Below are positions 14,640-50,571 of a stretch of 64,000 bases of DNA, one piece after another. The stretch is taken from contig OZ024742.1 in the NCBI GenBank assembly GCA_964016885.1, positions 279,806,001-279,870,000 of the forward strand, in the 5' to 3' direction. The position numbers and the translations under genes are program-made. The notes below the pieces were generated by a model, which did not search any database, was not told where the DNA came from, and worked only from the letters and a program-made list of their open reading frames with translations. Each line of letters opens with the position of its first letter. The stretch's first letter is position 1. Source of the stretch: Eledone cirrhosa. Its lineage: Eukaryota.

Positions 14640-16408
14640 CTCACCACACCATTCCCTCCTCCCTACACACCCAAACCCTTCCACTTTTTGTCACCATACC
14701 TCCAGACATCCTCCTCTCCGCACCTGAGCGTTCACTCCTCAATAGAGGCCTTGGCTTCATACCCCACACTCCGCACCCGAACGGAAGTCGAGCGTTTCGT
14801 GCGATAAACGAAGTTACATCCACATTTCGTTCAAACGCCACCAGCTCCGAACGCCCCAGACCCATTTCTCGCCCTGGGCCGACGACCATCGTCTTGGACG
14901 CCGGCCCCAGGGCAATTTAGCACCCTGGACTCGTTCGTCGATGCCTGCCGTAGCGCAGTAAATCGCTTTGACTTCAGCCACCGGTCCCAACGGAATAACA
15001 TCTCACGGGGCGAACTCCTCGCTCACCGCTCCCTCCGTAGCCGAGATGACATCGTCATCAAACAGGCGGACAAGGGAGGTGCCGTGGTGGTGTGGCGCGC
15101 CTACCTCTACACGGCTGAAGCCCTCAGGCAGCTCCGTAACCACCTCTTCTACCGCCCTCTACCTTCCGATCCCACACCCCTCTAACAACAACAAGTTTCT
15201 TCCACCATCCAACATCTTGTCTCCTCCTCCCTCATCCCCCCATCGCTTCCCACCTCATCGTCCCCGCACCCCCGCACCCCCACTATCTATTTCCTCCCCA
15301 AACTCCACAAACCCGACAACCCCGGCACCCACATCGTCTCCCCTTGCAACTGCCCCACCGAACTCATCTTCGCTTTTCTTGACTCCATCCTCGCTCCCCT
15401 CGTCACCCCCCTCCCGTCCCACATCTCCGACACCAAGCACACACTTCGCCTAATCGACTCCTTCACCTTCCCACCTGAGAACAGCTCAACTCCTTTCTCT
15501 CCTTCTTCTGTTCCTTCCACCCCTCCCTCCACTTCACCACCTCTATCTCCACCACCCACGTCCACATCTTAGACATCTCCGTCGCCTTCGACCCCTCCCA
15601 CCACTCCCTCGTCACCTCCACCTTCTTCAAACCCACCGACTCCCACTCCTACCCCGACTTCACCACCTCCCACCATACAAAACACTAAACACTCCATTCC
15701 CTACTCCCAACTCCTCAGGATCCGCCGCCTCTGTAGCCGGGATGCTGACTTTGAGTCCCAGGCCCTTTCCCTAGTCAGCCATTTCATCCGCAGAGGTCCC
15801 CCCTTCCCCCCTCCCTCGTCCACACCGCCTACACTCGCGCCCGTACTGGCCACCGCTCCACCACCCTCGCCCCACGCCACCGCACACCCACCCACCGTCT
15901 CCCCTTCCCCATCACCTACCACCCCTCCACCCTACCCCTCCACCGCACCTTCCTCCGCCTCTTCCGACGCCTCCAGTCCGAACCCTTCACCTCCCACGTC
16001 TTCCCAGCCCCACCACTCCCCTCCTTCAAACGCACACGCAATCTTCGCACCCTCCTCGTCCGCAGCTCTCTACCTCCTACCCACCTGGTTTCCTTCCCTC
16101 TTCCAGGCCTCGGTGCAACACCTGTCCCCACATCACCAAAACCACCACCTTCCAGGGTCCCAACGGCCACTCTCTCTCTGTCCGGCACGCCTTCCGCTGC
16201 ACTTCCTCCAACCTAGTCTATGGACTTCGCTGCACCAGGTGTGGCGCTACCTACGTCGGACAGACTGGACGTCGTCTGGCGGACTGTTTTAGCGAACACC
16301 TCGGGGCTATTCGTCTCGGCGGTAGTTCCCCCCATCGCCCGCCACTTCCGCTCCCCCAGACATTCTGCGCACCACCTCACAGTATGTGGCCTACTCCAAT
16401 GCCACGGT
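14640..16408 (+). pseudogene. Neptune-type Penelope-like RT/GIY-YIG ORF remnant with RT catalytic core deleted
   Basis: LLSAPERSLLNRGLGFIP; DIVIKQADKGGAVVV; IYFLPKLHKPDNPG; SIPYSQLLRIRRLCS; RCNTCPHI; NLVYGLRCTRCGATYVGQTGRRL...EH. Frameshifts and stops present; the sequence jumps from SFTF to the thumb near 15475. Confidence 0.85.
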
Positions 16409-16625
16409 GTCCGTGTTGTTTGCTCTGATCAGAGCAAACAACACGGACACTCTATCTCAAAATTATTTTTGAAAAGCATTTAGAAATGCGAAACCGGTAA
16501 AAAATTAAAAGATTAAAACCACAACTGAATACTAACCCATGCAATTACTAATACTCTTTTATTCCTAATTAAACCATTTTTCAACTATGAACAATTTGTC
16601 AGCATTTTCTATTCCGTTTACCAAT
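16407..16625 (+). mobile_element. PLE-type short element (family D) with 44-bp perfect palindrome and HHR
   Basis: Palindrome at 16407-16450; HHR TTT-TTGAAAA-GCATTT ag AAATGC-GAAA-CCGG-TA-AAA at 16466-16502; homologous to 33136-33320. Confidence 0.75.
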
Positions 16626-23110: not shown

Positions 23111-23472
23111 TTTAGGCGGGGTGGTCGTCAGTCATCCCGTCTAATTGGTTATAGTTTACTGGCACATAGTCAAACAAGGAAGAAGGAACATACCTCAATT
23201 TTATGTTATAAAAACATGTTTAATAGGAGCAATTACAGAATATATATACAAATACATTAGTGCTCCTAGGTTGGGATATATTTAAGTCGTCATATACTGC
23301 CGCTTTGGATCACTGCATGTAGATAGCACGATAGAGATAGCACGTCTATATTTCCCGAGATCATCGTTTAATAAATATTGTTTCAGCTACTGACGTCAGA
23401 ATGTGACGTCAGAACTAAGGGTAGTTAATCGACTGCCTTCACAGTCGACGCTAGATGGCGTGATCTTCTACA
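23111..23472 (-). repeat. 3' LTR
   Basis: Direct repeat of 28048-28430; TGTAG...CTAAA on the minus strand; purine-rich tract CTGGTGGGAGG just inside. Confidence 0.9.
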
Positions 23473-23810
23473 TGGCCTCCCACCAGATTTTTAGAAAATT
23501 AAATAAAAATCGGTTCATCGAATCATGTATGTAGAAAAACCGATTAGCAACCAGCAAAAATCCCAAACCAAGGAGCAGTCAGCCTAACCGAGCATGAAGG
23601 GCACAACACATTTCAAAAATACATATTAAACAAACATGCAAGAACGTGAAAGGAAAAAGCAAATGTAATAAAATGTAAATACAATTTCCTAAAAGTTCCA
23701 ATAGTCACTACAGGATTAATGCACCGCACAATAGCAGTTTAAAAATATACCGTGCTACACAGTTTTTTTGGCCAATGAACCCTCCGACAGGAACGGGTCG
23801 TAGTCTTATA

Positions 23811-26800
23811 TCATGGTGATTGTGGGGTCAAATAAACAGGTGTGTGTGCAAAAGAGAAAGATGGGGGTGTATGTGGCTCAGGTGTGTGAGCATCTGTGTG
23901 GGCCCGTTTAAGTCTATCAACCGCAATGGTCTCTCTGGATACCTTAATGTCTACAGTGAAATGTTTATCAGAACGAGCCAACACACAGTAGGGTCCAGAG
24001 TACGGTTGTTTGAGAGGTGGTTTCCCGACATCGTTTCTCACAAACACACGGGTCCACGAGGCAATATCCCTCGGGACTGCAGATTTTACAGTTTGTTTCC
24101 TCGTATCCATCGGCGGCAGGTCCTGAAAATGAGAACGCAGACGGGATACGTAGGAAAGCGGATCTTGTGCAGCAAGATCGACAGGGGAAAGCATTTGCTC
24201 AGGCAACGCTAGAGGAGCACCATACAATAATTCGGCCGAGGAGAACCCAAGGTCCTCCTTTATTGGTGACCGAATCCCCAACAACACAATAGGGAGGTAC
24301 TCGCTCCACGCGTAGAGTCAGGAGAAGTCCGCAGAGCGGCTTTTAGTTGTCGGTGGAAACGCTCCACCATTCCATTAGAGGCAGGATGATATGCAGTCGT
24401 TCGGATGCGTTTAGCGCCGATGATTTTCGTTAATTATTGGAAGAGATTCGATTCAAACTGTCTTCCAAGGTCTGTTGTAATCGTGGTTGGCACTCCGAAG
24501 CGGGCAATCCATCCTGATATTAGGGCACGCGCTGTCGTTTCAGCAGTGAAGTCTTTCAAGGGGATGGCTTCAGGCCATCGCGAAAAACGATCAATAACAG
24601 TCAATAGATAAGCATGACCACCACTGACTGGCCAAGGTCCCGGGATGTCCACATGAATGTACCGGAAACGGGCGTCCAGTGTACTGAACGTACCGAGCGG
24701 AGCCTTAACGTGTTTATGGATTTTCGATTTCTGGCAAGCAATGCAGGAACGGAACCAAGCAGTAATATCGCGCCTCATATTTGGCCAGAAGAATCTGGCT
24801 GTTATGAGATTTACTGTGGCAGAAGATCATGGGTGGGAAATGCTGTGTAAATCAAGAAACACAGTACGACGATGGTTTAGCCGGACGAATGGTCTCGGTG
24901 AATGCACGGAAACGTCGCAGTCGCTGAGAATCTGTTCGTCAGCGGTGAGCAATGGCAGGTATTTCAAATTACTCGTCGCAAATTCGGCTGATGTAATATC
25001 CAACGATTCCAGTGCAGGTTGGTCTGCTGCCAAGTGATTTAAATAGATGTCGTGGGATGACGCAATTGAACTGATCGGAAATCGAGACATGGCGTCAGCC
25101 GCTGTGTTTAATGAGCCTGGAATGTGTTGGATATCGTTTGTGAATTGCGAGATAAAGTCGAGATGCCTTGTTTCTCTGGGCGAGTACTTGTCGGACTCTG
25201 CCCTTAAAGCGAAGGTCAAAGGTTTATGGTCAGCATAGATTGTAAAACACCTTCCTTCGAGCATATGTGAAAAATGTTTCACGGAAAGGTAGATGGCTAA
25301 CAGCTCCCGGCCAAGGGTGCTGTAGCGAGTTTCTTCAGGCTTTAACTTCCTGGAGAAAAATTCCAATGGTTGTTGGTGATCCTCACTACTCTGTTGTAAG
25401 ACTGCACCCACTGCAGTATCCGACGCATCAACACAAAGCGAAAGCTTTGCATTGGACGCTGGGTGGGCCAGCAAAGATGCACTAGCCAATGCTGATTTGG
25501 ATTTTTTTAAATCCTCGAGCTGAGTCTGAGTCAAAGTGATGTCCTTATTTTTCTTGCGACAATTTTTCAGATTTAGTAGATTAACACATTGCGGAGCAAA
25601 ACGTCTATAGAAATTTATCAGTCCTAGGAATTGTCGCAACTGACGAAGTGAGGTCGGCGGAGCCAAATCCTCTATAGCCTCAACTCGTTGAAGGGGGGGG
25701 GGGGTCGAATACTCTCGGAGTCAATGACATGACCTAAAATATTCAGCTATTCCGCACCGAAAACATATTTATTTGAACACTGTAATCCTTGAGTCGACAA
25801 AACAAAAGATTCAAATGACGTATGTGTTCTTCTCTGGAGGAACTAGCAATAAGCAGATCATCAATATAAGTGTAGTCGAAATCTAAACCACGAGTGACCT
25901 CATCCACGAACCGTTGAAAGGTGCTAGCAGCATTCCTAAGTCCGAAAGGCATGGTAAGAATTTCGAATGATCCAAATGGAGTCGTAATGGCCGTATTCGG
26001 AATATCTTCTTTCTTGACAGGAATCTGATGATAGGCTCGCACCAAATCGAGCTTCGAGAATATTTTACATCCCTGCAATGACGATGCAAAATCTTGCGGA
26101 ATAGGATATCTATCCGGGACAGTTATAGCATTTAACTTCCTATAATCCCCAATGGGTCTCCGGTCGCCAGAAGTCTTGGGTACCATGTGTAACGGAGAAG
26201 CCCAAGGGCTCGTAGAATGGCGAATTATGCCTAGCTGCAGCATGTGGTCGGACCGTGCTGCCTTCAATTTGTCCGCTGGCAAGCGACGAGGACGTGAGAA
26301 TACTGGGGCGCCAGTTGTAGAGATAAAATGCCCCGTTGTGTGAGTCGGTTCGACAACGCCAAAATTTACCTGAGTAAGCTGTGGGAAAGAATTCAATAAT
26401 TCATGATAGGGATTCCCAGCATTAGCGATGAAAAAGGTCGGGCTAACCGTTGGAAAATTAGCTTTCTGGCCACGAAGAGAAAAACCAGTAATGTCATCTA
26501 CTAGGCGTCGGCCAGGGACGTCCACCGTCAATGCAAAATGGTGTAGAAAATCCGCTCCCAAGATCGGATATGGTAGGTCAGCAACCGTAAAAATCCATTT
26601 GAATTCTCGTCTAAGATTTTTGAATTGCAGAGGAAGCGAGATTTGTCCAACAGTCCGTATCGGCGAATGATTGACAGCTTGTAGATTTATTGATGACTCA
26701 GGAGGAGTTATTGTCATACAATTGACAGGCCAAATACTGCACGAAGCTCCTGTGTCTACGAGGAAAGCTCTTCCAGACAGGAGGTCCTCTATGAAGAAAT

Positions 26801-26864
26801 GGCGGTTCTGTTGTGTCTCGCAGAGTTCCCTTGCCGCTTTTAGTGACTCTGATCTACATTTCCC
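23811..26864 (-). pseudogene. pol: Pol (protease, RT, RNase H, integrase) broken by frameshifts and stops
   Basis: LVDTGA; MPFGLRNA; YIDD; VDASDTAVGAVL; RELLAI; DHKPL; HHCC; [10 protein letters not shown]; HPASNGMVERFHRQLK; GPY. Confidence 0.9.
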
Positions 26865-27628
26865 GAAGCTGAATATTTACATGGAGGCCGGCAATGTTTT
26901 GCCTTATCCGCGAAGGTGGTATGATACCAGCAAAATAATGGATTGCTGGCGGACGAAGTAGTATGCTGACGTGGAGTCGCGAAAGAACGCGAACGACTCC
27001 TAGGCCGCCGGGAATACGGCCTATTCTCCCTGCATAACCGAGCGCCTTGCTGCGTCAAAGCGTCAATAGCCTTCAACATGGCAACCTCGCGTGTCGAGAC
27101 GGGCTGGTTCAAATGAGAGGAAGCAATACGCGAGTCCGAGGCGGTAGACTTTTTTGAAAATTCCACGATTCGATCCGTGGAGGCAGCAATTTTCTCCAAA
27201 GAGCTGGTGTCCACTATATTTGCCAAAATAATTTGGACGTTGTTTGGCAGGCGAGAGAAACATACTTGTTTAATAAAGGAATTATCCTGTTCAGGCGATT
27301 CACTGAGGTCCCTAATGTGGCGCAAATATTCTGACGCCGACCTATTGCCTAGACACTCATCCTCCAACAATGAACGAAATCTGCTCTCAGCAGAACGACT
27401 GTTCCTTCGAAGAATTTCTTCCCGCAACGAATCATAAGAAATACTGGCCGACGGGTTCGTAATCAAATCTTTCACTGTTATAGCGAGTGAAGAAGGAAAA
27501 CCACTTATCAAAAAGTTGAGCTTTTTCTCGGTTTTTACTTCGTTGGCAGCAAAATAAGCGTCTAGCTGCGCAAACCAGAGCTTAGTATCGCCTGAGAACG
27601 CAACCAAACCAGGACCACTCATCGTCAA
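26840..27628 (-). CDS. gag: Gag (CHCC nucleocapsid motif)
   Basis: [10 protein letters not shown]...; [19 protein letters not shown] = C-X2-H-X9-C-X3-C. Confidence 0.85.
26858..26864 (-). promoter_or_regulatory. Candidate -1 ribosomal frameshift heptamer G GGA AAT
   Basis: In correct phase in gag (TCG GGA AAT); the -1 frame stays open into the protease ([27 protein letters not shown]...LVDTGA). Confidence 0.65.
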
Positions 27629-28028
27629 TCTATTACCGCATGGACGAATAAAAGTAACTAATGTTCAAAACGACGGGAAAACAGCACAATTTTCCCTAAA
27701 TATCCATAAAGTTACCGCAAGCAAAAGAAATTCAGTCACAGTACAAGAAATAGCAGCGAAAGTCCTAAAGGTGGAATTTCTGGAACAAGATAGCCATCAT
27801 CAAACAAGATGGCGGCGCATTTCTTTTCCAAAACAAGAATATGGTCGCGTGACGAGGCTAAGCCAATCAGATGGCTGCATTTGAAGAAGAAAGACAATGT
27901 GCGGGAATGTTAGATGGCCAGTCAGCCATTTTTGAAAAAATATATTTTTTCCTTTTTATTTTCTGTAAGACGAACAATTTTCAATTTAAAACGAATGGTG
28001 AAAGTAAGCAGGCTGCGTTTTCATATTT

Positions 28029-28046
28029 AATCGTCGAAGGTCACCA
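28029..28046 (-). promoter_or_regulatory. Primer-binding site, tRNA-Trp-like
   Basis: TGGTGACCTTCGACG one base after the 5' LTR; resembles the complement of the tRNA-Trp 3' end (TGGTGACCCCGACG). Confidence 0.7.
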
Positions 28047-28047
28047 A

Positions 28048-28430
28048 TTTAGGCGGGGTGGTTGTCGTCAGTCATCCCGTCTAATTGGTTATCGTTTACT
28101 GGCACATAGTGAAACAAGGAAGAAGGAACATAACTCAATTGTATGTTATAAAAACATTTTTAACCAGCGCAATTACAGAATATATACAAATAAATTAGTG
28201 CTCCTAGGTTGGGATATATTTAAGTCGTCATATACTGCCGCATGGTGTGATGTCATCCTTTGGATCACTGCATGTAGATAGAACAATAGAGATAGCACGT
28301 CTATATTTCCCGAGGAGATCATCGTTTAATAAATATTGTTTCAGCTACTGACGTCAGAACGTGACGTCAGAACTAAGGGCAGTTAATCGACTGCCTTCAC
28401 AGTCGATGCTAGATGGCGTGATCTTCTACA
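28048..28430 (-). repeat. 5' LTR
   Basis: Direct repeat of 23111-23472 with substitutions and a ~17-bp indel near 28242-28258. Confidence 0.9.
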
Positions 28431-31267: not shown

Positions 31268-31310
<43 letters not shown>

Positions 31311-31316
<6 letters not shown>

Positions 31317-31760
31317 ATTAAATAAATGGAAACTATATTTATAAAACCATATGTATTTCATTATATATATTTCAGGGATATCATATTAACAATATGCTAT
31401 GCCTTCCTCAGACAAAATACAATATAAACAGTTTTATAGATAAATAGATTTGACATACCGTAACAACATCGACTTGTATTTGAAAAGTTGAATTGGCATT
31501 CAAATACAAGTCGATGTTGTTACGGTATGTCAAATCTATTTATCTATAAAACTGTTTATATTGTATTTTGTCTGAGGAAGGCATAGCATATTGTTAATAT
31601 GATATCCCTGAAATATATATAATGAAATAAATATGGTTTTATAAATATAGTTTCCATTTATTTAATATTGTAAATATACTCCAAATATTTGTCGAGTGCT
31701 TTTATATCAGTTATAAATATTTACTAGTTGTAACCCAACAATTTAAATATAACTTTCTAT
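31311..31760 (+). mobile_element. Fold-back PLE-type insertion (family F)
   Basis: Arms 31311-31484 and 31499-31672, tail to about 31760, in (TA)n. Confidence 0.8.
31564..31629 (+). ncRNA. Type I hammerhead ribozyme (family F)
   Basis: TATTTTGT-CTGAGGA-AGG...CCT-GAAA-TATATA-TA-ATGAAATA; mirror copy on the minus strand at about 31354-31419. Confidence 0.7.
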
Positions 31761-31789
31761 GTATATATATATATACATGGAAAGTTATA

Positions 31790-32102: not shown

Positions 32103-32465
32103 TAGATATATAGATATATGTATGTATGTATCTTTGTAAAAGGTAAACAGAAATAACAACACAATCGGTACTGTATATGGAAGGGATATATTAGGTTAAT
32201 GCTTGATATAGCAGGAAGAGGGTCTCAACGCCTCGGACGCTACTCCTTCATCAGAAGAAACAAGCAGAAATAAGAGAGTTTGAGGGGACGGAAAAAAAAG
32301 TCGTTAGATAAAAATAACAGGTCCATTCATGTTACATCCCTTGCAAAACTGTTTGTAGTGACGTTTTGTGTATGATTTTTTTTTTAGAAAAGTGGATGAT
32401 CGAGCGTGTCTACCTGAAATGGAAAAAAAAAACGTTTCATATGTATGTATGTGTATATATATATA

Positions 32466-32897
32466 TCAAGTAAGAATATTTTCGAAACAGCGAGCGAGTT
32501 TGAAATTATAAATGTAAGCTACCGCCGTATTTTGACTAAAGAAATTAAAGAAAATTTTTTAGCCTGATAGTGGGGTTAAGAACCCTCGGAGAAATGGAAA
32601 AAGATGAGTATTGATGTACATGGGAGTCGAACCCACATCTTTGGTTATTCTGACCACTGTGCTACCATTACACCAACACATCAAATTAGAAGCTATAATC
32701 TTAGCAACTGTAAATGTCAAGTAAGAATATTTTCGAAACAGCAACCTAGTTTGAAATTATGAATGTAAGCTATCGTTGTATTTTGACTAAAGAAATTAAA
32801 GAAAATTATTTAGCCTGATAGTTCTTAACCCCACTATCAGGCTAAATAATTTTCTTTAATTTCTTTAGTCGAAAAACGGCGATAGTTTACATTTATA

Positions 32898-32899
<2 letters not shown>
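32466..32899 (-). mobile_element. tRNA-containing 251-bp unit in partial tandem plus inverted arm, in (TA)n
   Basis: 32466-32571 is repeated at 32717-32822 (offset 251); 32821-32899 is the inverted copy of about 32505-32583. Confidence 0.7.
32611..32683 (-). pseudogene. tRNA-like sequence (SINE-type head with Pol III A and B boxes)
   Basis: TGATGTG TT GGTGTAATGGTAGCAC A GTGGT CAGAATA ACCAA AGAT GTGGG TTCGACT CCCAT G TACATCA A; T5 run shortly downstream; imperfect cloverleaf. Confidence 0.65.
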
Positions 32900-32988
<89 letters not shown>

Positions 32989-32993
<5 letters not shown>

Positions 32994-33315
32994 TAAAAGG
33001 AAAAGAAATTGCTGACAAATTTTTCACAGTGAAAAATAGTTTAATTAGGAATAAGTAAAAATTAGTATTGGTTAGTATTCAGTTTTGGTTTCAAGTTTTT
33101 ACCGGTTAGATAGAGCGCCCGTGATGTTTGCTCTGAGAGCAAACATCACGGGCGCTCTATATAAAAATTATTTTTGAAAAGCATTAGAAATGCGCAACCG
33201 GTAAAAAATTGAAACCAAAACTGAATACTAACCAATACTATTACTAATTTTTACTTATTCCTAATTAAACTATTTTTCACTGGGAAAAATTTGTCAGCAT
33301 TTTCTTTTCCTTTTA

Positions 33316-33320
<5 letters not shown>
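32989..33320 (+). mobile_element. Family D palindromic insertion
   Basis: Fold centre at 33135. The right-arm HHR (33171-33206) has GAAA>GCAA; the left arm lacks the HHR core. Confidence 0.75.
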
Positions 33321-33377
<57 letters not shown>

Positions 33378-34063
33378 ATTGTATGCTTGCACGTCCGTAT
33401 GGATCTATGAGTGTGTGTGGTGAACGTTGTTAGACAAAAGAAGAACGTTGTCACAAAAGTAGAATGATCGAAAATGTGAGGCTCCCGTGATGTTATAGTC
33501 CAACTTGATAGCTATCAGTAAAAAACCGTCATAATGTGCAGAGAACAGAATGAAGTAACGATGTTAGACCTGAAACTTCCATCGGAGACGTACATCAATG
33601 ATACGTTTGAGTTAGAAGCCTGAAAACTGAGATATCAACGGATAGGTGGCATCATAATTTCTTGTAGAGATTTGTATCAGGTTATTTGTTGGAACAAGAT
33701 TGAGTCGCTACCCAGGATTTTGATTAACCGTAAAGGTAATAAACCAACATTCGCGAAAATTATCTGAGCCTGCTAGGTATGCATTTCAGCATCTAGCTCA
33801 AGAGAGAAGAATTGTGCGTCTAGTACCAAGATAAGCACACAATGCGCATTTCTTCTATCACCAGTTTGAGGAGCAGATTGGTAATGGAGTCGGGTCCATA
33901 ACTCCTATGGGGGTTCTTGAGCCAATCCTCTGCAAAACGCGCGTAACAAGTCATACAAAATAACTATCGAATACATGCAAACGAAACTTCCTCATATTTT
34001 CTCTCTCTCTCGAAACACACAAACAATTGTTCTCTGAATGGTGATCTATCTGTTGTGTTACCA

Positions 34064-34109
<46 letters not shown>

Positions 34110-34125
34110 TATCACAAAATCGAAT

Positions 34126-34215
34126 TTCATCTGAGGATACCGTTCTCATAACAACAACAAATGCATGAATTACATCTTGATGGCATGAGCGAACCATTGA
34201 AATAATTATAATGAA
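34126..34215 (+). ncRNA. Type I hammerhead ribozyme in a PLE-type fragment (34107-34260)
   Basis: TTCAT-CTGAGGA-[GTTC TCAT...ATGA gc GAAC]-GAAA-TAATTA-TA-ATGAA; duplicated on the minus strand at 42781-42870. Confidence 0.7.
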
Positions 34216-34264
34216 TAAACGATTTTTGTAACATCAGCATCTTTATTAATGTTATTAATATATA

Positions 34265-34287
34265 TAGATAGATAGACAGATAGATAT

Positions 34288-34382
<95 letters not shown>

Positions 34383-34515
34383 TGTTTCTTTTATTTGCCA
34401 CTAGGGCATCAAAAGTGGGACAAGTACAAAGGGGGAGTTTACACAAAAAGGCGTCCTCAATAAGGAGGAGGCAATAACAAAATATAAAAATAAAATAAGA
34501 TATAACAATAGATAG

Positions 34516-34546
<31 letters not shown>

Positions 34547-34563
34547 GATAGATAGATAGATAT

Positions 34564-34594
<31 letters not shown>

Positions 34595-35106
34595 TGTTTC
34601 TTTTATTTGCCACTAGGGCATCAAAAGTGGGACAAGTACAAAGGGGGGAGTTTACACAAAAAGGCGTCCTCAATAAGGAGGAGGCAATAACAAAATATAA
34701 AAATAAAATGAGATATAACAAAAAATAAAATTTTTAACAAAATCCTCAATAGAGAGGAGGCGCCTTGGGGGGTCGCACACACCCCCGAAAAAAGTGTGCA
34801 ACCCTTCTCCTCAGGAGCACAGAGAAGGGGTGCTCCCTTGGTCTTTCATCTTCCTCACCTATAGTCTGATGTAGAGTGAAGGCCCATTCACACGGGCCAT
34901 TCTCGCCACTTTCACCCATCTTTCATAGAAACGGCTGGGGTGCAGCACCTCTCTCTCCATCCTGATCCTTCTTCCGAAATGATATCGGAAGAAACGGACC
35001 AGTTGTTGGCCAGAGAGAAAAGTGCCCGACCCCAGTCCTTTCAGACGCGTCCACCATACAACCTCTTTCGCCATGGCTATTACGCACAGAAACACCGCCT
35101 CTGCTT
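34265..35106 (-). mobile_element. Two stacked 5'-truncated copies of the LINE 3' end (about 510 and 125 bp), each followed by (TATC)n
   Basis: 34595-35106 and 34383-34508 repeat the ORF2 end/3' UTR; GATA arrays at 34265-34382 and 34508-34594. Confidence 0.85.
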
Positions 35107-35382
35107 GATAGATAGATATATTTCTTTTATTTGCCACTAGGGCATCAAAAGTGGGACAAGTACAAAGGGGGGAGTTTACACAAAAAGGCGTCCTCAATAA
35201 GGAGAAGGCAATAACAAAATATAAAAATAAAATAAGATATAACAAAAAATAAAATTTTTAACAAAATCCTCAATAGAGAGGAGGCGCCTTGGGGGGTCGC
35301 ACACACCCCCGAAAAAAGTGTGCAACCCTTCTCCTCAGGAGCACAGAGAAGGGGTGCTCCCTTGGTCTTTCATCTTCCTCAC

Positions 35383-38300
35383 CTATAGTCTGATGTAGAG
35401 TGAAGGCCCATTCACACGGGCCATTCTCGCCACTTTCACCCATCTTTCATAGAAACGGCTGGGGTGCAGCACCTCTCTCTCCATCCTGATCCTTCTTCCG
35501 AAATGATATCGGAAGAAACGGACCAGTTGTTGGCCAGAGAGAAAGGTGCCCGACCTCAGTCCTTTCAGACGCGTCCACCATACAACCTCTTTCGCCATGG
35601 CTATTACGCACAGAAACACCGCCTCTGCTTCATCTTTGAAGGGGGGAGGCGGCTTGATCATTACAATAGACTCGGTGGTCAACCGGATCGGTCCCACCCT
35701 TGACAGCAGTTGTTCGACATAGCCCCACAGATCGGCTACGCCCGAGCAGTGTACTAATGCGTGTGCAACGGTTTCCTCGTCGCACACGCATCTGGGACAG
35801 ATCTTTTTGGCGGGGTCCCTACCCGGGCGCCCGTGTCTGTAGAGCCTTTCTCGAACGGGTAAAGCCCCTCGGTAGCACTGCCAGGCCAGGGACTTCTGGA
35901 AGTTGTCCATAGGTCCCGGGCTAAATGTCCTACCGAAAAGGCTGGCCAGTTCGTCCTCCTCCATGTCTAGGGCTTCTCCGAGGGCGTCGTCGCACCTGCT
36001 GCGTACCAGCCCTCTATAGAATGTTGCGGTGGAGTCTCCACTGATAACCGGATCCGCCTGCCAGAGGGCGGTGAGCGCCTGGGCACACTCAGTGTGCCAG
36101 GCGCCCAGTTTTCTCGGTCTTTGCTTGACCCAGGATTGCAGCTCGGTGAGTGAGACGAGTCTGGGAAAGGTTCGTCTCACAAACGAGGCCCACACCGGTT
36201 GTCCGGTGAGGAATACGTAGAGGTGCCGTAGCCTTAATGCGTGTTTACGCATCATTAGCCACGGCATCCCCAGCCCTCCTTTCGAAGGGTGTTGACAGCA
36301 GATGGATCTCCTCACCATAGGAGCCCGCCTCTTCCAAAGGAATTGGAAGAGCGCGCGCTCCATCTTGGTGAGGGTTTCCCTTGGGCAGGGCACTACGGTC
36401 AGGCGGTAGTAGATGACGGACGCTATGTAGGTGTTCGCCACCTCCGCCCGACCTTTCAGGGATAGTTTGCAACTGGCCCACTTCTGGGTCAGTGCAAACA
36501 CTCTGTTCGTAACCTCCGCCCAGTTTTTCTCCACCTGGAGGTCCGGTCCGAACCAGACCCCGAGCAACTTCACCGGGCCCTCCGTCCAGCGTCCGACGAC
36601 GCTATCGGAGGGCATCGGTCTGCCCCTCCACGTGCCGAGTTGCAAACCGATCGACTTGTCCCGGTTCAGCTTAGCCCCTGTGAACTTTTCGTACTCCTCC
36701 AGTAAGGTGCCGACCGCCTCGATTTCGGAGGCCGTCGACACCATTACTGTCACGTCATCGGCGTAGGCCGACACCGCTTTCCGCAATCCCGGTTCCAAAG
36801 GGATGCCCTGCAACAACTCCAACTTCCGCAGTAGTGGCTCGAGAGTCAATACATACAGAAGGGAGGAGAGAGGGCACCCTTGTCGGATGGACCGCGCGAT
36901 TTTGAACGGCTCCGAGAGGTAGCCGTTCACCTTGACCCTAGAGCAGATGCGGCTGCTGTGCATAGCAGTGATCCAGCCCCTGAAAACGGGTCCGAAGCCT
37001 GCCGCCGCTAGCACCGCATCCAGGTAACCATGGTCGACCCTATCGAACGCCTTAGATTGATCCAAGTTGATCAGAGCCCCACCAAAGCCGGGTTCGTTCC
37101 CAACCCTCTCTATGATGTATCGCATGAGGTGGAGGTTGTCATGGATGGACCTGGACGGGATAGCGCATGTCTGCGCATCTCCCACCAGGTTGCCCACGAC
37201 AAGCGCCAACCTCTTTGCTAGCACCTTGGCCAAAATCTGTAACTCTGTATTTAGCAGTGTTATGGGCCTGAAGTTACTTATTTCGTCCCCCTTGTTCTCG
37301 TCCTTCCTCACTAGCGTGACTACGCCCTTGGTCACAGTACAGGGAATTCTCCCGTTCTGTTGCCAGTTGCAGTAGACCGCCTCGAGGAGATCGGGGAACA
37401 AGTCCGGCATAGCTAGATATAATTCGTAAGGAAGACCATCGAGACCCGGGGATTTGCGTTTGCCGCATTGGCTCAGCACGTCCTCTATCTCAGCGGCCGA
37501 AATCGGCTCCTCGCAGGACTTCGCCTCCCTGTCCGAGAGGCGCGGCAGGCCGTCGAGGTATGGACCGAAGTCCACGTTCCCAACCGGCTCCCCGCCCCTC
37601 CCGAACAGTCGGGCAAAGTGCCTTTGAAAGGCCTCACACATCTGCTTAGGCTCAAGAATCGCCCGTCCATCCAGGTCTCGCAAAGACCGGATGGTGGATT
37701 TAGTTCCACTGTTGGCCTCTGTCACGCGGGCCCAGCTAACAGCTTTGGTCCCCTCGTTCCCTAGAGCACGTATTTTACTTCGGACAACGCAGCCTTCGTG
37801 CTTCGCGTCGAAAAACTGGCTCAAAGCCGTTCTCGACGCTAGCACTCTGGCCACGTCGCCGCTTCTAATTGCCTCTTCTACTCTATCTATTAGCTCCCTT
37901 TCCTTCCTATTCCTATCCGCAGCTAGAACCTTACTAAATTCTATCGAGACTACTCTAATCTCTCTCTTTAGAGATACCCACCACCTGCTGTTGACGATCG
38001 CTCCAGTCAACCGTTCCTTAACTAACGTACTAATCCGATTCCTGTAGGCTCTACTTGCCGGCAAGGACAAGTTGAGCTTCCAGTAACCGGGGCCCTGTCT
38101 ATGAGTTCTGTCAAGGTTGACCATGCAGGTCACTAATTTGTGGTCTGAATAGCCAACAATGCGCATTTTTGGACAACTTAAAAATTCCTTATCCTTAATT
38201 CTAACTAAGAACCTATCTAGGTACGACCTAGATGATCCGCTACGATTTGCCCAAGTCCAGGTTGGCGCAGTCGGAAAATCTAGTCGATATCTATCGGCCA

Positions 38301-38820
38301 GGTCAAATCGACCGATTAACCCTTTGAGGCTATTACACCCCTCTCTATCGGGGCAGGCCCCTACGTAGTCCCAACGTGCATCTAGGATACCATTCCAGTC
38401 CCCCACTAATAGCAAGGAGCGGGACGTCCCTAGAAAAGTCTCCAGACGATGGAAGAAGTCCGGCCGCATTGACCCGAAAGGGCCGTAGGCGGCTACCAAC
38501 CTAAACGCTCCGCCTTTACCACTGCCAAGGTCCAGAACCACTAGTCGACCCTCCGGGTCCAAATGTACCATCTGTGTTGCGAGACCCAGATGTTTTTGCA
38601 GCAGAACGACAACTCCACCCCCACCTCCAGGCTGACAGAGAGATGCGTGCATCTCAAAGTCATCAAAGGTGGGGGCCAGCTGTCGCACGTTGCTGATCCG
38701 GGCCTCGCAAATAACCATCACATCTATACGTTGTGACCTGAGGTCATTTAGAAGCATTGCTTGCTTCCAAGTTGAGCCCAGGCCACGCGCATTTAAACAG
38801 CCTACTCTTAGCATAGCCAT
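35383..38820 (-). CDS. LINE ORF2 protein: APE endonuclease + reverse transcriptase + CCHC
   Basis: CLNARGL, GDWN, SYLDRFLV, SDH; KSPGLDG, FRPITLLN, LDQSKAFDRV, QGCPLS, YADD; CPRC..ETVAHALVHC; first ATG at 38820. Confidence 0.95.
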   Translation of the reverse strand: MAMLRVGCLNARGLGSTWKQAMLLNDLRSQRIDVMVICEARISNVRQLAPTFDDFEMHASLCQPGGGGGVVVLLQKHLGLATQMVHLDPEGRLVVLDLGSGKGGAFRLVAAYGPFGSMRPDFFHRLETFLGTSRSLLLVGDWNGILDARWDYVGACPDREGCNSLKGLIGRFDLADRYRLDFPTAPTWTWANRSGSSRSYLDRFLVRIKDKEFLSCPKMRIVGYSDHKLVTCMVNLDRTHRQGPGYWKLNLSLPASRAYRNRISTLVKERLTGAIVNSRWWVSLKREIRVVSIEFSKVLAADRNRKERELIDRVEEAIRSGDVARVLASRTALSQFFDAKHEGCVVRSKIRALGNEGTKAVSWARVTEANSGTKSTIRSLRDLDGRAILEPKQMCEAFQRHFARLFGRGGEPVGNVDFGPYLDGLPRLSDREAKSCEEPISAAEIEDVLSQCGKRKSPGLDGLPYELYLAMPDLFPDLLEAVYCNWQQNGRIPCTVTKGVVTLVRKDENKGDEISNFRPITLLNTELQILAKVLAKRLALVVGNLVGDAQTCAIPSRSIHDNLHLMRYIIERVGNEPGFGGALINLDQSKAFDRVDHGYLDAVLAAAGFGPVFRGWITAMHSSRICSRVKVNGYLSEPFKIARSIRQGCPLSSLLYVLTLEPLLRKLELLQGIPLEPGLRKAVSAYADDVTVMVSTASEIEAVGTLLEEYEKFTGAKLNRDKSIGLQLGTWRGRPMPSDSVVGRWTEGPVKLLGVWFGPDLQVEKNWAEVTNRVFALTQKWASCKLSLKGRAEVANTYIASVIYYRLTVVPCPRETLTKMERALFQFLWKRRAPMVRRSICCQHPSKGGLGMPWLMMRKHALRLRHLYVFLTGQPVWASFVRRTFPRLVSLTELQSWVKQRPRKLGAWHTECAQALTALWQADPVISGDSTATFYRGLVRSRCDDALGEALDMEEDELASLFGRTFSPGPMDNFQKSLAWQCYRGALPVRERLYRHGRPGRDPAKKICPRCVCDEETVAHALVHCSGVADLWGYVEQLLSRVGPIRLTTESIVMIKPPPPFKDEAEAVFLCVIAMAKEVVWWTRLKGLRSGTFLSGQQLVRFFRYHFGRRIRMEREVLHPSRFYERWVKVARMARVNGPSLYIRL

Positions 38821-38844
38821 GTTGGTGGTGAAGAGAAAAGGCAC

Positions 38845-40626
38845 TTACCTCTCTGCGTCCCGGGTATCGGGCTGCACAATTTCCATTAGGGTGGGGGATG
38901 GGTTGTTGGGTGGGGTGGTGGTTTGTGGAAGTGTGGGGGCATCAGTGTGTTGTGTGGTTGGGGAGCTTGGAGTTGTGAGGGTGTTTGGGGAGGGGGTGGG
39001 ATAGTTTTTTAGGAGGACTCGGTTAATGGGCCCGACGCAGGGGGGACCCACGTCCTCTTTAAAATTGTTTTTTAAAGTTTTATAGGTGTCCTGTGGGGCC
39101 TTAATCATTTTGAGGTGGGGGAAATCCCCTGCCTGGGTGAAGTTAGGCCCTTGTGTTTTTATTAGATTGTTGTTGTACACAATGTTTAACAGTTTTTTGT
39201 TTCTTGTATTTATGTATGTGTATGCATGTTTTTGTTTTTGTGTGGTGTTTTTTGTTTGCTGTTGTGAGCTCTTTTGTGTTGGTGTCAGTGTTATGTTTTG
39301 GGGAGGGGTTTTTTTCATTTGTGTGTCTGAGGTGTGTTTTCTTTTTTTTCTTTTGATTGTGTGGAAGTGCTCCTCCTCGTCTGACGACGAACTAGGGTCA
39401 TCTTCCGCGTTGGAGGGGAGGGGTATATTTTCGGGTTGTGTTTGCGGTACGGGTGTTTTGGAAATTGTTTTTGTTTTTTGAGTGGAGGGGATGGGTTGGA
39501 CATTGTTTTGTTTTGGTTTGAGCTGTGGTGGTTGTTTTTGTAGTGGTTGTTGTGGTGATTGTGTTGGTTGTGCAGTTGTTGGTGGTGTAGGCAGGATTGG
39601 GGTTTTCTTATTAAGTTGGGGACAGACAGCCCTCAGGTGACCTCTGGTTCCGCAGAGGTAACACGAGGGCCGTCTACCCTCAACGGTAATGTTGATGAAG
39701 GTTAGATCATCCAGTATGACGCGTTCAGGGATCTGGGCGATCCTTTCGGGCCTCATTTGAACTACAAGTTCGAGGCTCGTTCCACTGAACGCGTCACCCG
39801 ATGCCTTTCCCATGGACACCAGCATGTCATCCTCCAGGTCCAGAAAACCTGTCAAAACCCACCATATGTCCATAATCGGCAGGATGGTGTGGATTTTTAT
39901 TTTTTGTGTTCTTCTACCCATGTACGTAGGGTAGAAGGTGTATGCGGTGGATGTGATTGGTTTGATGGACAGTTTCACTGCTGTGTCCCTGTCCTTCATG
40001 AGAATGGATAGACTCCCGTAGAGTCTATCCTTCTGAATGAAGGTGATGTCCTTCATGACGTCTTTTAAAACCAGCTCTATCTCGCTCTGTGATGGTTGAG
40101 CTGGTTTTTTACTTTTGTTCGAGATTGTCCTAAACATGACCGTGTTTAGGAGTCTCTGGCTTTTTAGTTCCGGGGGGGAATGGATTGTGAATGAACCATT
40201 TTCCCCGTACACTATATATTTTTTCGCATCCGCCAGTAGCTCCTTCGCTTTTGTTATATCTACTGGCAGATAGTCGAGGGTTTTCCTTGTCGTCTCGGCG
40301 AAGGAGAAATTTTGTTTGTTTGTGTTGTTGTTGTCGTTGGTGGTGTTGTTGTTATCATTGTTGTTGTTGTCACCGTTATTGGTCTTGTTGTTGTTATTGT
40401 TATTGTTATTGGTGTTGTTTTCTACCGTCGCATTGTTGTTGTTGTTGCTGTTGGTTCTTTGGGTTGTTGCCATGGTAACGTCAAGTTGTCGGTTAACAGG
40501 TGGAGAGAATTCTTCCTCTGACTGACCTATCTTCTTGACCTCTGCTACTGTGACAGTGGCAGGGGGGAGCTGTAAGTTCATCTTCCCCTTTCCTCCTTCG
40601 AATTTTGGTGAAGAAGCTTCGGCCAT
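38845..40626 (-). CDS. LINE ORF1 protein (CCHC zinc knuckle)
   Basis: 593 aa uninterrupted; VEGRRPSCYLCGTRGHLRAVCP; Asn-rich N-terminus and Pro/Thr/Gln-rich C-terminus. Confidence 0.9.
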   Translation of the reverse strand: MAEASSPKFEGGKGKMNLQLPPATVTVAEVKKIGQSEEEFSPPVNRQLDVTMATTQRTNSNNNNNATVENNTNNNNNNNNKTNNGDNNNNDNNNTTNDNNNTNKQNFSFAETTRKTLDYLPVDITKAKELLADAKKYIVYGENGSFTIHSPPELKSQRLLNTVMFRTISNKSKKPAQPSQSEIELVLKDVMKDITFIQKDRLYGSLSILMKDRDTAVKLSIKPITSTAYTFYPTYMGRRTQKIKIHTILPIMDIWWVLTGFLDLEDDMLVSMGKASGDAFSGTSLELVVQMRPERIAQIPERVILDDLTFINITVEGRRPSCYLCGTRGHLRAVCPQLNKKTPILPTPPTTAQPTQSPQQPLQKQPPQLKPKQNNVQPIPSTQKTKTISKTPVPQTQPENIPLPSNAEDDPSSSSDEEEHFHTIKRKKRKHTSDTQMKKTPPQNITLTPTQKSSQQQTKNTTQKQKHAYTYINTRNKKLLNIVYNNNLIKTQGPNFTQAGDFPHLKMIKAPQDTYKTLKNNFKEDVGPPCVGPINRVLLKNYPTPSPNTLTTPSSPTTQHTDAPTLPQTTTPPNNPSPTLMEIVQPDTRDAER

Positions 40627-40829
40627 TTAAAAAAATATTGACTTTTCAACAAGAAAAAACTTTTTTTAACTATTTCGCCTAAAGGCGTAGAATATTTTGA
40701 GAGACTGACCAGATCAAAGTTTGACCTGGCAGTCCCTCTACAAAATGGTACAAAAATTAAAGTTATCAGACAAGAATTTCTATAGAAATTTAAACAGAAC
40801 TTACTCAGCAAGTTATACGCGTGTGTCCA

Positions 40830-42401
40830 TCCCAGACTCGTCTCACTCACCGAGCTGCAATCCTGGGTCAAGCAAAGACCGAGAAAACTGGGCGCCTGGC
40901 ACACTGAGTGTGCCCAGGCGCTCACCGCCCTCTGGCAGGCGGATCCGGTTATCAGTGGAGACTCCACCGCAACATTCTATAGAGGGCTGGTACGCAGCAG
41001 GTGCGACGACGCCCTTGGAGAAGCCCTAGACATGGAGGAGGACGAACTGGCCAGCCTGTTCGGTAGAACATTCAGCCCGGGACCTATGGACAACTTCCAG
41101 AAGTCCCTGGCCTGGCAGTGCTACCGAGGGGCTTTACCCGTTCGAGAAAGGCTCTACAGACACGGGCGCCCGGGTAGGGACCCCGCCAAAAAGATCTGTC
41201 CCAGATGCGTGTGCGACGAGGAAACCGTTGCACACGCATTAGTACACTGCTCGGGCGTAGCCGATCTGTGGGGCTATGTCGAACAACTGCTGTCAAGGGT
41301 GGGACCGATCCGGTTGACCACCGAGTCTATTGTAATGATCAAGCCGCCTCCCCCCTTCAAAGATGAAGCAGAGGCGGTGTTTCTGTGCGTAATAGCCATG
41401 GCGAAAGAGGTTGTATGGTGGACGCGTCTGAAAGGACTGAGGTCGGGCACCTTTCTCTCTGGCCAACAACTGGTCCGTTTCTTCCGATATCATTTCGGAA
41501 GAAGGATCAGGATGGAGAGAGAGGTGCTGCACCCCAGCCGTTTCTATGAAAGATGGGTGAAAGTGGCGAGAATGGCCCGTGTGAATGGGCCTTCACTCTA
41601 CATCAGACTATAGGTGAGGAAGATGAAAGACCAAGGGAGCACCCCTTCTCTGTGCTCCTGAGGAGAAGGGTTGCACACTTTTTTCGGGGGTGTGTGCGAC
41701 CCCCCAAGGCGCCTCCTCTCTATTGAGGATTTTGTTAAAAATTTTATTTTTTGTTATATCTTATTTTATTTTTATATTTTGTTATTGCCTTCTCCTTATT
41801 GAGGACGCCTTTTTGTGTAAACTCCCCCCTTTGTACTTGTCCCACTTTTGATGCCCTAGTGGCAAATAAAAGAAATATATCTATCTATCAAGCAGAGGCG
41901 GTGTTTCTGTGCGTAATAGCCATGGCGAAAGAGGTTGTATGGTGGACGCGTCTGAAAGGACTGGGGTCGGGCACTTTTCTCTCTGGCCAACAACTGGTCC
42001 GTTTCTTCCGATATCATTTCGGAAGAAGGATCAGGATGGAGAGAGAGGTGCTGCACCCCAGCCGTTTCTATGAAAGATGGGTGAAAGTGGCGAGAATGGC
42101 CCGTGTGAATGGGCCTTCACTCTACATCAGACTATAGGTGAGGAAGATGAAAGACCAAGGGAGCACCCCTTCTCTGTGCTCCTGAGGAGAAGGGTTGCAC
42201 ACTTTTTTCGGGGGTGTGTGCGACCCCCCAAGGCGCCTCCTCTCTATTGAGGATTTTGTTAAAAATTTTATTTTTTGTTATATCTCATTTTATTTTTATA
42301 TTTTGTTATTGCCTCCTCCTTATTGAGGACGCCTTTTTGTGTAAACTCCCCCCTTTGTACTTGTCCCACTTTTGATGCCCTAGTGGCAAATAAAAGAAAC
42401 A

Positions 42402-42432
<31 letters not shown>

Positions 42433-42449
42433 ATATCTATCTATCTATC

Positions 42450-42480
<31 letters not shown>

Positions 42481-42613
42481 CTATCTATTGTTATATCTTA
42501 TTTTATTTTTATATTTTGTTATTGCCTCCTCCTTATTGAGGACGCCTTTTTGTGTAAACTCCCCCTTTGTACTTGTCCCACTTTTGATGCCCTAGTGGCA
42601 AATAAAAGAAACA

Positions 42614-42708
<95 letters not shown>

Positions 42709-42886
42709 ATATCTATCTGTCTATCTATCTATATATATTAATAACATTAATAAAGATGCTGATGTTACAAAAATCGTTTATTCATTATAATTATTTCAAT
42801 GGTTCGCTCATGCCATCAAGATGTAATTCATGCATTTGTTGTTGTTATGAGAACGGTATCCTCAGATGAAATTCGATTTTGTGATA

Positions 42887-42932
<46 letters not shown>

Positions 42933-42967
42933 TGGTAACACAACAGATAGATCACCATTCAGAGAAC
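40830..42967 (+). repeat. Right arm of inverted duplication (LINE 3' end, stacked copies, flanking DNA)
   Basis: Includes ORF2 tail 41032..41613, identical (TATC)n variant patterns and non-LINE flank 42732-42967. Confidence 0.95.
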
Positions 42968-42978: not shown

Positions 42979-43063
<85 letters not shown>

Positions 43064-43070
<7 letters not shown>

Positions 43071-43650
43071 TAGCGAAGCAAGCGGTTATTAAACAATTTT
43101 CTAAATAAATTAAAAAATGATTAAATAATCACCTGTTCAGACGCTGTACATTGTACCTGTTGAAGTATCCATCCACTTCTATAATTATTCTCCTTATGTA
43201 GAGAACAAAACGTTGAATAATGCTGCTAATTTTAGTGGCAATTCGACATGTTAATAATATCCAGCTTTTATCAGCGAACTGATTATGCGTGTGTGCCATT
43301 TTAACGGCTTGACCGCATGCGTTGGGCCGGGACCATAAAATTTACTTGCTATAAGGCTTGATACCTTATGGCGTGGGAATAGGACTGTCTGAAGATTCAT
43401 TTCTTTCCATTGGAAATTCGTTGGATTTTCAATCTTTCGGAATGATGAAACCGTCGGTAACAGCGTCTGAACAGGTGATTATTTAATCATTTTTTAATTT
43501 ATTTAGAAAATTGTTTAATAACCGCTTGCTTCGCTACTTTTATATTGTTCTGGTATCTCGAATTAGTGTCATTGAACCACATGTATTATAAACAACTTGA
43601 ATATTTCTACAAGTACATTGTACCTGTTGAAGTATCCATCCACTTCTATA
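43064..43650 (+). mobile_element. Non-coding HHR element: inverted arm + 467-bp unit with 38-bp terminal direct repeat
   Basis: 43064-43147 is the reverse complement of 43460-43543; 43146-43183 is identical to 43613-43650; in (TA)n. Confidence 0.8.
43385..43463 (+). ncRNA. Type I hammerhead ribozyme
   Basis: CTGT-CTGAAGA-tTCATT...AATGAt-GAAA-CCGTCGG-TA-ACAG; predicted GUA cleavage after 43459. Confidence 0.8.
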
Positions 43651-46065: not shown

Positions 46066-46901
46066 TAATCATACGTGGATAAATTTTATTTAAACGAGAT
46101 GATGAGATATATGTAATGAAATGTTGGAGCAAGACTGAATCCATATATAAGATAACCTACGAAAACAGAACTAAACTGAAAATATATATATGTGTGTGTC
46201 TGTGTATCTGAATATCATTGAATACTTATATATATGAATAAGAACTTCTTTCTCCCTCTTTTTTGCGATATTAATTTACACTCTCACGCACACCTACATA
46301 CTCTCACTACAGGAATGAGCTTCCACACACATACTGTGGGTGTGAGTTTATATGCATATCTGTATTAATGCTTATCATATATAGGATTTCTACGAAAATA
46401 TACACAACATTTTATTTATACATATATATATTGGTATATCACTTTCTTATCCTTTTATCAATCTCTCTCTCGCTCTCGTTTTCTATATATATATATGACC
46501 ACTCCACATAAATACCACAATTTAAGAATGACCTGTAGTATCGAATTTCATACTAATAACCTCAATTGAATATATATCTGACCAGGAATGCTTTTTCTGA
46601 AAATCAGTCTTATGGAACTATTGTCATCTTGCCTGACGGTTTGAACTTTACAACACCACCTGCCTCTTTGAGGCCAAATACCAACCCTACTAGCATCTAC
46701 AAAGGGACCAATGAGAATTAAGACTATTCCTGCTGACAACAGTAAATTATTCCTAACAAGCTCATATGTCCCAAGGCTCTGATACCATCAACACTATAAA
46801 CACAGAGCTGGCATATCTAAGAACTAACTAACTGCCTGTTGAGGTTATAGCCATTCAATGGCTATCATCGAAATATATATGTATATATGAATGTATGTAT
46901 A

Positions 46902-47496
<595 letters not shown>

Positions 47497-48830: not shown

Positions 48831-49378
48831 CATATATTATCTATATGTATGTACGTATAGATGTATATATGTATATATATTTGTGTGGGAATGTGTGTTT
48901 GTGAAATAACAATTTCTGTGAGACCATTTAAATGCATTAGTTCTTCAGCTCTATCCAATTTATTAACATGTCTGGGATTCTATCAATTCCAATCTATATC
49001 ATCATCATGTAAATTGCACCTCGCAAGCGCATGTATAGAAGTTGTCCTTTTTTACTCACTTTTGTTCTGTTTTCAATTAATCATCGTTGCATAACTGTCA
49101 TTTTCTGAAATAAATAACCATTCTTTTTTTAACCAGCTAGCGATAAATATATATATTAGTGGAGGATATGCGGGCAAGTGTTTAGTGCGGTCAGCTCAGG
49201 AACATAATAGAGTTGTAGTTTCGATTCACACACATGCACACGAGGAAACACACACACACGCGCGCGCGCGCGCTTACACATACACACGCACGCATACGCA
49301 CACACACATGCATACAGGCACGCACGCACACACACACATACATATACACACATATATATATATATATATACATACATA

Positions 49379-50399: not shown

Positions 50400-50571
50400 A
50401 TATATATATAAAAACCTACTACAGTCAGTAGGCATCTCTATCAAAACACACCCCCGCCCCACCACCTCCACCCCATCCACACCGCCCCTTTCAATGTAAA
50501 GTTATGTTGGTCCCACAACATCCAGGCCGAAACAAATGAGATCGTGTAGGTGTCACGACAAAAAAAAACAC

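Follow-up and report, generated by a model that had tools for sequence, protein, structure and literature searches.

A tRNA-headed, (TA)n-bounded repeat of Eledone cirrhosa, a probable ribozyme-less hitchhiker on PLE machinery

Layout of the insertion

Within the window (the whole 64-kb stretch of Eledone cirrhosa DNA that was analyzed), we found a 434-bp element at positions 32466 to 32899. Its target is a microsatellite, with a short (TA)n flank recognized in the sequence as a TA run on the left (32454 to 32466) and a long (TA)n flank of about 50 units on the right (32894 to 32990). The element consists of a full unit of 251 bp on the minus strand (32466 to 32716), a 5'-truncated tandem copy, or pseudo-LTR, on the same strand that repeats the last 106 bp of the unit including its tail (32717 to 32822), and an inverted, 5'-truncated arm on the plus strand that has no tail and ends in (TA)n (32821 to 32899). 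The two direct copies (32466 to 32571 and 32717 to 32822) have a spacing of 251 bp and are 92.5% identical, with 8 differences over 106 positions, and the arm is the reverse complement of 32505 to 32583, with 93.7% identity over 79 bp; the tandem copy and the arm overlap by 2 nt at their junction. When the locus was compared with itself, the best direct and inverted matches scored 156 and 168 bits, respectively, against maxima of 24.7 and 33.7 bits in 100 dinucleotide shuffles, which bears out the arrangement of 1.4 tandem units plus an inverted arm between (TA)n arrays that a preliminary description of this DNA had proposed.

Read on the tRNA-sense strand, which is the minus strand, the order of parts is (TA)n, inverted arm, truncated copy, leader, tRNA, body, tail, and (TA)n. 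A leader of 33 to 34 nt (32683 to 32716) precedes a complete tRNA-like cloverleaf with A- and B-box-like motifs (32612 to 32682), followed by a body with a T5 run, an AT-rich hairpin, and no hammerhead (32505 to 32611) and then by a 3' tail of 38 to 39 bp (32466 to 32504), all on the minus strand. The tail is present at the left end of the element and in the tandem copy and is missing from the inverted arm. No open reading frame of 150 or more amino acids was found in the 434-bp element, the RT plus GIY-YIG frame of an autonomous Penelope-like element (PLE) is absent, and there are no further copies of the element elsewhere in the 64-kb window. The preliminary description had the element without poly(A) and without a TSD; there is indeed no poly(A) at the locus, while a TSD is not readable inside (TA)n.

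Over the 67 bp common to all three local copies, any two of them differ at 5 to 6 sites, and each has private changes (2 in the unit, 3 in the tandem copy, and 3 in the arm). Because every copy carries changes of its own, the comparison fits a single insertion event, after which each copy would have decayed by about 4%, and it argues against an artifact. The AT-rich hairpin (32528 to 32566) folds with a z score of -4.8 in an interval that was picked by eye, and folding of the whole unit was no better than that of shuffled sequences (z scores of -1.1 and +0.3, and -1.2 for the unit). Similarity among the tail, the trailer, and the leader within the element was not significant. Positions 32533 to 32557, in the hairpin, apparently mark a subfamily with a short internal duplication that is missing from the copies of organisms B and C, where loose ends are seen at 32557.

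The tRNA-like head

ARAGORN reported a tRNA at 32611 to 32683 on the minus strand, labeled Phe GAA, and the Rfam family RF00005 matched 32612 to 32682 on the same strand with 45.4 bits (gathering threshold, 29). This was the sole tRNA or gathering-level Rfam match in the 64-kb window; miRNA matches in the Rfam search, which stem from the inverted repeat, all fell short of the gathering threshold. In the cloverleaf, the acceptor, D, and T stems are paired, though the copy is decayed, and the segment contains A-box-like and B-box-like motifs. The 73-nt tRNA-like sequence with A and B boxes that had been described earlier is thus confirmed by both programs and by the box-like motifs.

The anticodon loop is noncanonical in this copy, with A33 and U37 where U33 and a purine at position 37 are canonical. 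The majority letters at 32649 and 32651 in X1, one of four public runs considered below (109,507 and 84,429, respectively, of a depth of 110,361), restore U33 and give the anticodon GGA, and there was no change at position 37 among the 40 of 212 variants listed. Since the majority letters of the family yield U33 and GGA, we regard the Phe identity as a product of decay and reject it. On the tRNA-sense strand, the tRNA starts 33 to 34 nt into the unit, and a T5 run (32598 to 32602) is found 9 nt 3' of it. In this copy such a run would probably terminate Pol III transcription, which speaks against the Pol III drive of the preliminary description.

Absence of a hammerhead

We found no hammerhead core with GAAA on the tRNA-sense strand of this decayed copy, with up to two core mismatches allowed and the unit junction included. 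A structure-aware scan of the window returned 10 candidates, none of them in the element; 6 of the 10 have perfect cores, and 5 of these lie in three related (TA)n-flanked repeats. The ability of the same scan to detect five perfect cores in neighboring repeats upholds the earlier statement that no hammerhead is visible in the element, and the type I hammerhead in each unit that defines a non-LTR retrozyme is absent from this copy. At gathering, Rfam finds no hammerhead anywhere in the window, though the scan finds minimal ones, and we gave this blank no weight.

On the plus strand, antisense to the tRNA, a motif at 32564 to 32594 resembles a Hydra-type core and is followed by a hairpin and GAAA. 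This motif, noticed post hoc, reads inward and lacks G8 and with it the catalytic base, and it was rejected as a hammerhead.

The one-sided tail and the polarity of the element

The left end of the element is at 32466, and the inverted arm meets (TA)n at the equivalent of 32505, which leaves 38 to 39 extra bp on one side only. We examined 12 other inverted repeats in the window and found a one-sided extension of 42 to 143 nt in 9 of them; the three without such an extension are a symmetric repeat at 32990 to 33319, a repeat at 46873 to 47353, and a duplication that involves a LINE, described below. The nine inverted, (TA)n-flanked insertions with a one-sided extension (68 to 2224, 5072 to 5525, 8453 to 8752, 8760 to 8982, 10881 to 13264, 31305 to 31761, 43062 to 43646, 49378 to 49752, and 50043 to 50403) look like MITEs and are likely PLE 3' ends. 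Their extensions exceed the usual 30- to 40-bp PLE tails, and related copies share the length of the extension (77 nt in two).

Perfect hammerhead cores are present on both arms, reading outward, at 31305 to 31678 and at 49378 to 49710. Outward-reading hammerheads imply that the outer ends are 3' ends and, with this, that the tRNA-sense (minus) strand is the RNA strand; judged by these neighbors, the outer ends of our element are likely 3' ends and its RNA strand is likely the tRNA-sense strand. The available text of Craig et al. (PMC8557442) gives the layout of a PLE insertion: a truncated copy stands before a full one, the 5' end often bears a further copy that is both inverted and truncated, and one end has a tail of 30 to 40 bp. 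It also lists Octopus Naiad and Hydra families as preferring (TA)n. Frangieh et al. (PMC11167929), in the portion accessible to us, showed that the tail spans the interval between two internal points of reverse-transcription initiation, and they call it a signature unique to PLEs.

Other copies in public runs

Five public runs contain part of the stretch around the element, and X1, X4, X5, and X6, four of the eight runs listed, were aligned to 32135 to 32716 at 80% likeness. Because the runs contain at most 0.26 of the words of the stretch and no listed piece spans it, they show the family and not this locus, and because the reference took in a high-copy flank, the totals do not reflect the element alone. 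This flank, to the left of the element (32135 to 32434), is itself repeated at very high copy number in each of the four runs; examined by eye, its majority letters bring back a minus-strand hammerhead.

At the listed variant sites from 32578 to 32651, the other letter was carried by at least 81 to 118 contigs in X1, 52 to 89 contigs in X4, 78 to 171 read starts in X6, and 0 to 5 contigs in X5. These counts make it a high-copy family in organisms A and B, and it also occurs in organism C. A single-copy locus and a LINE-like tail had been named beforehand as findings that would speak against the preliminary description; the runs contain a high-copy family, and a LINE-like tail was not observed. 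Exact-pattern scans of metagenome contigs with two patterns, the second of which was weak and required an extra base, returned no loci.

Opposite-strand joints between 32618 and 32622 were found in 4 X1 contigs, 1 X4 contig, and 17 X6 reads (5 starts), and joints between 32596 and 32618 were found in 20 X6 reads (2 starts). Three X4 opposite-strand joints, in a single contig each, have one end near a tRNA boundary. In five X1 contigs, (TA)n stands directly before 32507, which is the tail-less end. There was no head-to-tail joint from other copies among the 15 of 55 joints listed.

Depth declines from 502,392 at 32595 to 32614 to 235,990 at 32615 to 32634 in X1 and from 5,187 to 2,783 in X4 over the same intervals; in all four runs it is 1.4- to 2.1-fold higher just 3' of the tRNA, and it keeps falling toward the tRNA 5' end. 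From the tRNA (32655 to 32674) to the leader (32695 to 32714), which is rare in other copies, it drops from 99,643 to 3,256 in X1 and from 1,442 to 8.7 in X4. Three of the eight X4 pieces listed end at 32683, and 422 X6 reads have a different leader at this position, about 17 nt of which are complementary, by eye, to the tRNA trailer. Such complementarity between leader and trailer would lengthen the acceptor stem of these X6 copies into a long helix.

From these ends and depths, the family looks tRNA-headed like a SINE, with a common part that appears to begin at the tRNA (32683). A common sequence that begins there would mean that the internal position of the boxes, a claim of the preliminary description, reflects this tandem copy or its subfamily: the claim holds for the present copy, in which a leader of 33 to 34 nt precedes the tRNA, but not for other copies, in which the common sequence stops at the tRNA 5' end. 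Given the rare leader and the absence of head-to-tail joints among those listed, the 251-bp unit may be specific to a subfamily. Divergence among subfamilies may lie behind the depth steps, as may, in X6, restriction ends at AATT; RT stalling at the cloverleaf or such divergence would explain the step at the tRNA 3' end as well as tRNA processing would. X6 molecule ends at 32507, 32546, 32553, and 32557 coincide with AATT sites and were taken to be restriction ends rather than element ends.

Search for a partner

A broken PLE-type ORF at 14640 to 16430 contains DKG, CxxC, and YVGQT motifs, that is, an RT motif followed by CxxC and a GIY-YIG-like motif. It was identified by these motifs only, as Pfam gave no match for the three frames of the remnant that were submitted, and it is presumably Neptune-like. 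The 3' end of the remnant (14640 to 16623) matches, with 85% identity, the palindrome at 32990 to 33318 that adjoins the element on the right. By eye, a degenerate hammerhead can be seen in the 3' end of the remnant.

No autonomous partner was found among the window segments and the published consensus files. The body of the element did not match any of 17 distinct other window segments (the best comparison was reached in 6 of 200 shuffles, with 34 distinct tests made), the element's 3' end had no match among the tails in the window, and the 3' end of the window's LINE does not match the element. Two short motifs of the element were absent from the Naiad, Chlamys, and Hydra consensus files of PMC8557442 when searched as exact matches, which a line break could hide, and the Octopus Naiad 3' ends visible in that supplement bear no resemblance to the element by eye. 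The comparison of the 3' end with PLE tails that the preliminary description had suggested thus gave no match, either among the window's tails or, by the two short motifs, in the consensus files.

A near-intact APE-type LINE (34029 to 42967), with ORF1 at 38845 to 40626 and ORF2 at 35383 to 38844, lies 1.2 kb from the element. It has internal 3' tandem duplications, inside an inverted duplication of 2138 bp (99.8%) that is symmetric and passes the LINE's microsatellite-bound end and 37 bp beyond (TA)n. This duplication is a transduction or an assembly artifact. It is a weak counterexample, in that inverted layouts in the window are not always demonstrably made by PLEs.

A route of insertion and its alternatives

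We consider it probable that the element is a decayed copy of an abundant noncoding family, with a tRNA-like head and a body of about 145 nt, that was copied and inserted into (TA)n by a PLE RT/GIY-YIG protein acting in trans. By class, it is likely to be a hitchhiker on PLEs that has a tRNA head and no ribozyme, and in this respect a variant of the retrozyme- or SM-alpha-like elements. SM-alpha and Sj-alpha are the SINE-like hammerhead repeats of Schistosoma that are discussed below, and the SM-alpha promoter is presumably of tRNA origin. The layout, the tail, the copy number, and the absence of a hammerhead, all of them observed, support the PLE reading. PLE machinery had already been proposed as the mobilizer in the preliminary description; this proposal is strengthened by the tail, the partial tandem, the inverted 5'-truncated copy, the (TA)n target, the multicopy family, and the inverted joints, and it is weakened by the outcome of the partner search.

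The route that we infer, including Pol III transcription, a partner, and every enzymatic step, would run as follows. RNA would be made on the tRNA-sense strand, probably by Pol III from the A and B boxes in the manner of a SINE, and the PLE protein would nick both (TA)n strands and begin cDNA synthesis at two internal positions separated by about 39 nt. One cDNA would start at the distal site (32466), copy the full unit, and run on into a second unit, via a tandem read-through RNA or a template jump, to give 1.4 units. The other would start at the proximal site (the equivalent of 32505) and stop after 79 nt, and the truncated cDNA ends would then join head to head via the 2-nt overlap.

RNA cleavage, including tRNA processing, would not be needed on this route. 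By analogy, tRNA processing would not be required as a ribozyme substitute, the role suggested for it in the preliminary description, since hammerhead cleavage is dispensable for in vitro insertion by purified PLE protein, according to the accessible text of PMC11167929, and Naiad and Chlamys PLEs spread without hammerheads, according to that of PMC8557442. It seems unlikely to us that the family is a SINE-like parasite wholly dependent on PLEs, in which the cloverleaf acts both as promoter and as an RNase P/RNase Z cutting signal that replaces the retrozyme hammerhead. The paired stems, the depth step 3' of the tRNA together with the drop at its 5' end, and the leader-trailer complementarity of about 17 nt leave some room for such a cutting signal.

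SINEs of the textbook kind rely on LINEs. A tRNA SINE family of this ordinary, LINE-dependent sort, of which only some copies, this one included, were occasionally taken up by PLE machinery, would account for a common sequence that starts at the tRNA 5' end (as in the three of eight listed X4 pieces and the 422 X6 reads with another leader) and for the failure to find a PLE partner. PLEs can also retrotranspose host genes in trans, as stated in the available text of PMC8557442. We nevertheless hold this explanation to be rather improbable: the element lacks both poly(A) and a LINE-like tail, its sequence does not match the window's LINE at the 3' end, and inverted joints and the tail-less end at (TA)n recur in other copies, in two organisms. 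It is very unlikely that the mobilizer was a microsatellite-targeting non-LTR LINE of the R4/Dong or Tx1 type and that the inversion arose by twin priming. Twin priming inverts an upstream segment, whereas the element's arm duplicates the 3' end; the APE-type LINE 1.2 kb away does stand in a tandem-plus-inverted arrangement among microsatellites, but its inverted repeat is symmetric and passes both the microsatellite-bound end and (TA)n. For Octopus vulgaris, the accessible part of PMC13282606 names Dong-R4 and L1-Tx1 among the recently active elements, but the available text of PMC8557442 reports that a one-sided tail has not been observed with non-LTR TPRT.

A MITE or fold-back DNA element with terminal inverted repeats and a captured tRNA, to which the 79-bp inverted repeats near both ends and the TA target could be ascribed, appears highly improbable: the left arm lies 39 bp inside the boundary, the arm sequence is present three times, and inversion points vary between copies, with variable inner junctions and fixed outer ends partly seen in the runs. 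Similar palindromes in the window, moreover, carry hammerheads or match a PLE 3' end. We give next to no credence to an assembly or library fold-back artifact around a single tRNA pseudogene, even though no run spans the locus and such structures cause trouble in assemblies (PMC8557442, available text). The copies made by an artifact would be near-identical, whereas the three copies here differ at 5 to 6 of 67 sites and have private changes, and the family is high-copy.

Relation to known elements

The probable PLE-mobilized family, which would work in the manner of a nonautonomous PLE derivative, can be compared with several known systems. With EN+ PLEs (Naiad, Hydra, and Neptune) and nonautonomous Chlamys elements such as MRC1, as the available text of PMC8557442 presents them, the element shares the partial tandem (pLTR), the inverted 5'-truncated copy, the tail of 30 to 40 bp at one end, and (TA)n, and like Naiads and most Chlamys elements it has no hammerhead. 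Unlike EN+ PLEs, it has no ORF and has a tRNA head, and while nonautonomous Chlamys elements generally share their 3' ends with a partner (same source), no such similarity was found here. Animal non-LTR retrozymes, as covered in the accessible parts of PMC7229834 and bioRxiv 10.64898/2026.07.22.740005, resemble it in size range, in their short noncoding unit, in forming tandems, and in their proposed dependence on PLEs, but their defining feature is a type I hammerhead in every unit, and our element has a tRNA cloverleaf instead. A curation guide (PMC8969392) allows, in the text available to us, for treating retrozymes as a form of SINE that depends on PLEs.

The Schistosoma SINE-like hammerhead repeats likewise are short units, propagated in tandem, that contain a Pol III-type promoter, with the upstream copy transcribing the next, and by this analogy we regard them as the nearest precedent for such a promoter in such a unit, as far as the accessible part of PMC6765202 describes them. 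They differ in carrying an active hammerhead that frees monomers, and no inverted arm or tail is described in that part of the review. TRIMp3 elements (Helenus, Ajax, and Cassandra; PMC10886601, available text) are also nonautonomous, with a small-RNA-derived Pol III promoter and a dependence on a retrotransposon that is not a LINE, but they belong to the LTR elements and have true LTRs, a PBS, and TSDs of 4 to 5 bp, none of which was seen in our element.

Closest in the head itself are the tRNA-derived SINEs (SINE2), which likewise are short, noncoding, and high in copy number and whose common sequence starts with a tRNA head containing A and B boxes. Unlike them, the element has no LINE-derived tail, poly(A), or TSD that could be seen, and it has a complete cloverleaf that includes the 3' acceptor strand, as well as PLE-type ends. 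We found no published description of a tRNA-headed, hammerhead-less PLE hitchhiker within the scope of our search; the family may be recorded as an unclassified SINE in sources outside that scope, which are Repbase, Dfam, and the subscription literature with its 1994 paper on an octopus SINE. The cephalopod repeat surveys PMC13282606 and PMC8967140 describe no such element in their accessible portions.

Close precedents exist, and the element studied here is one decayed copy. If the reading is correct, a tRNA-headed, PLE-mobilized family would extend Pol III-promoter hitchhiking to a third class of retroelements, and would do so without a ribozyme. It would also offer a natural substrate of 250 nt, with two mapped candidate start sites, for asking how PLE proteins choose RNA and build tandem and inverted insertions. 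Families of this kind are probably filed in repeat libraries as unclassified SINEs, MITEs, or tRNA genes.

Other elements of the window

At 23111 to 28430 is a remnant of an LTR retrotransposon with direct repeats of about 360 bp at 90% identity; its minus strand carries protease and RT frames as well as gag-like and integrase-like ones. A tandem array of 77 copies of 36 bp occupies 52893 to 55661 and contains long open frames that are rich in Thr and in Asn.
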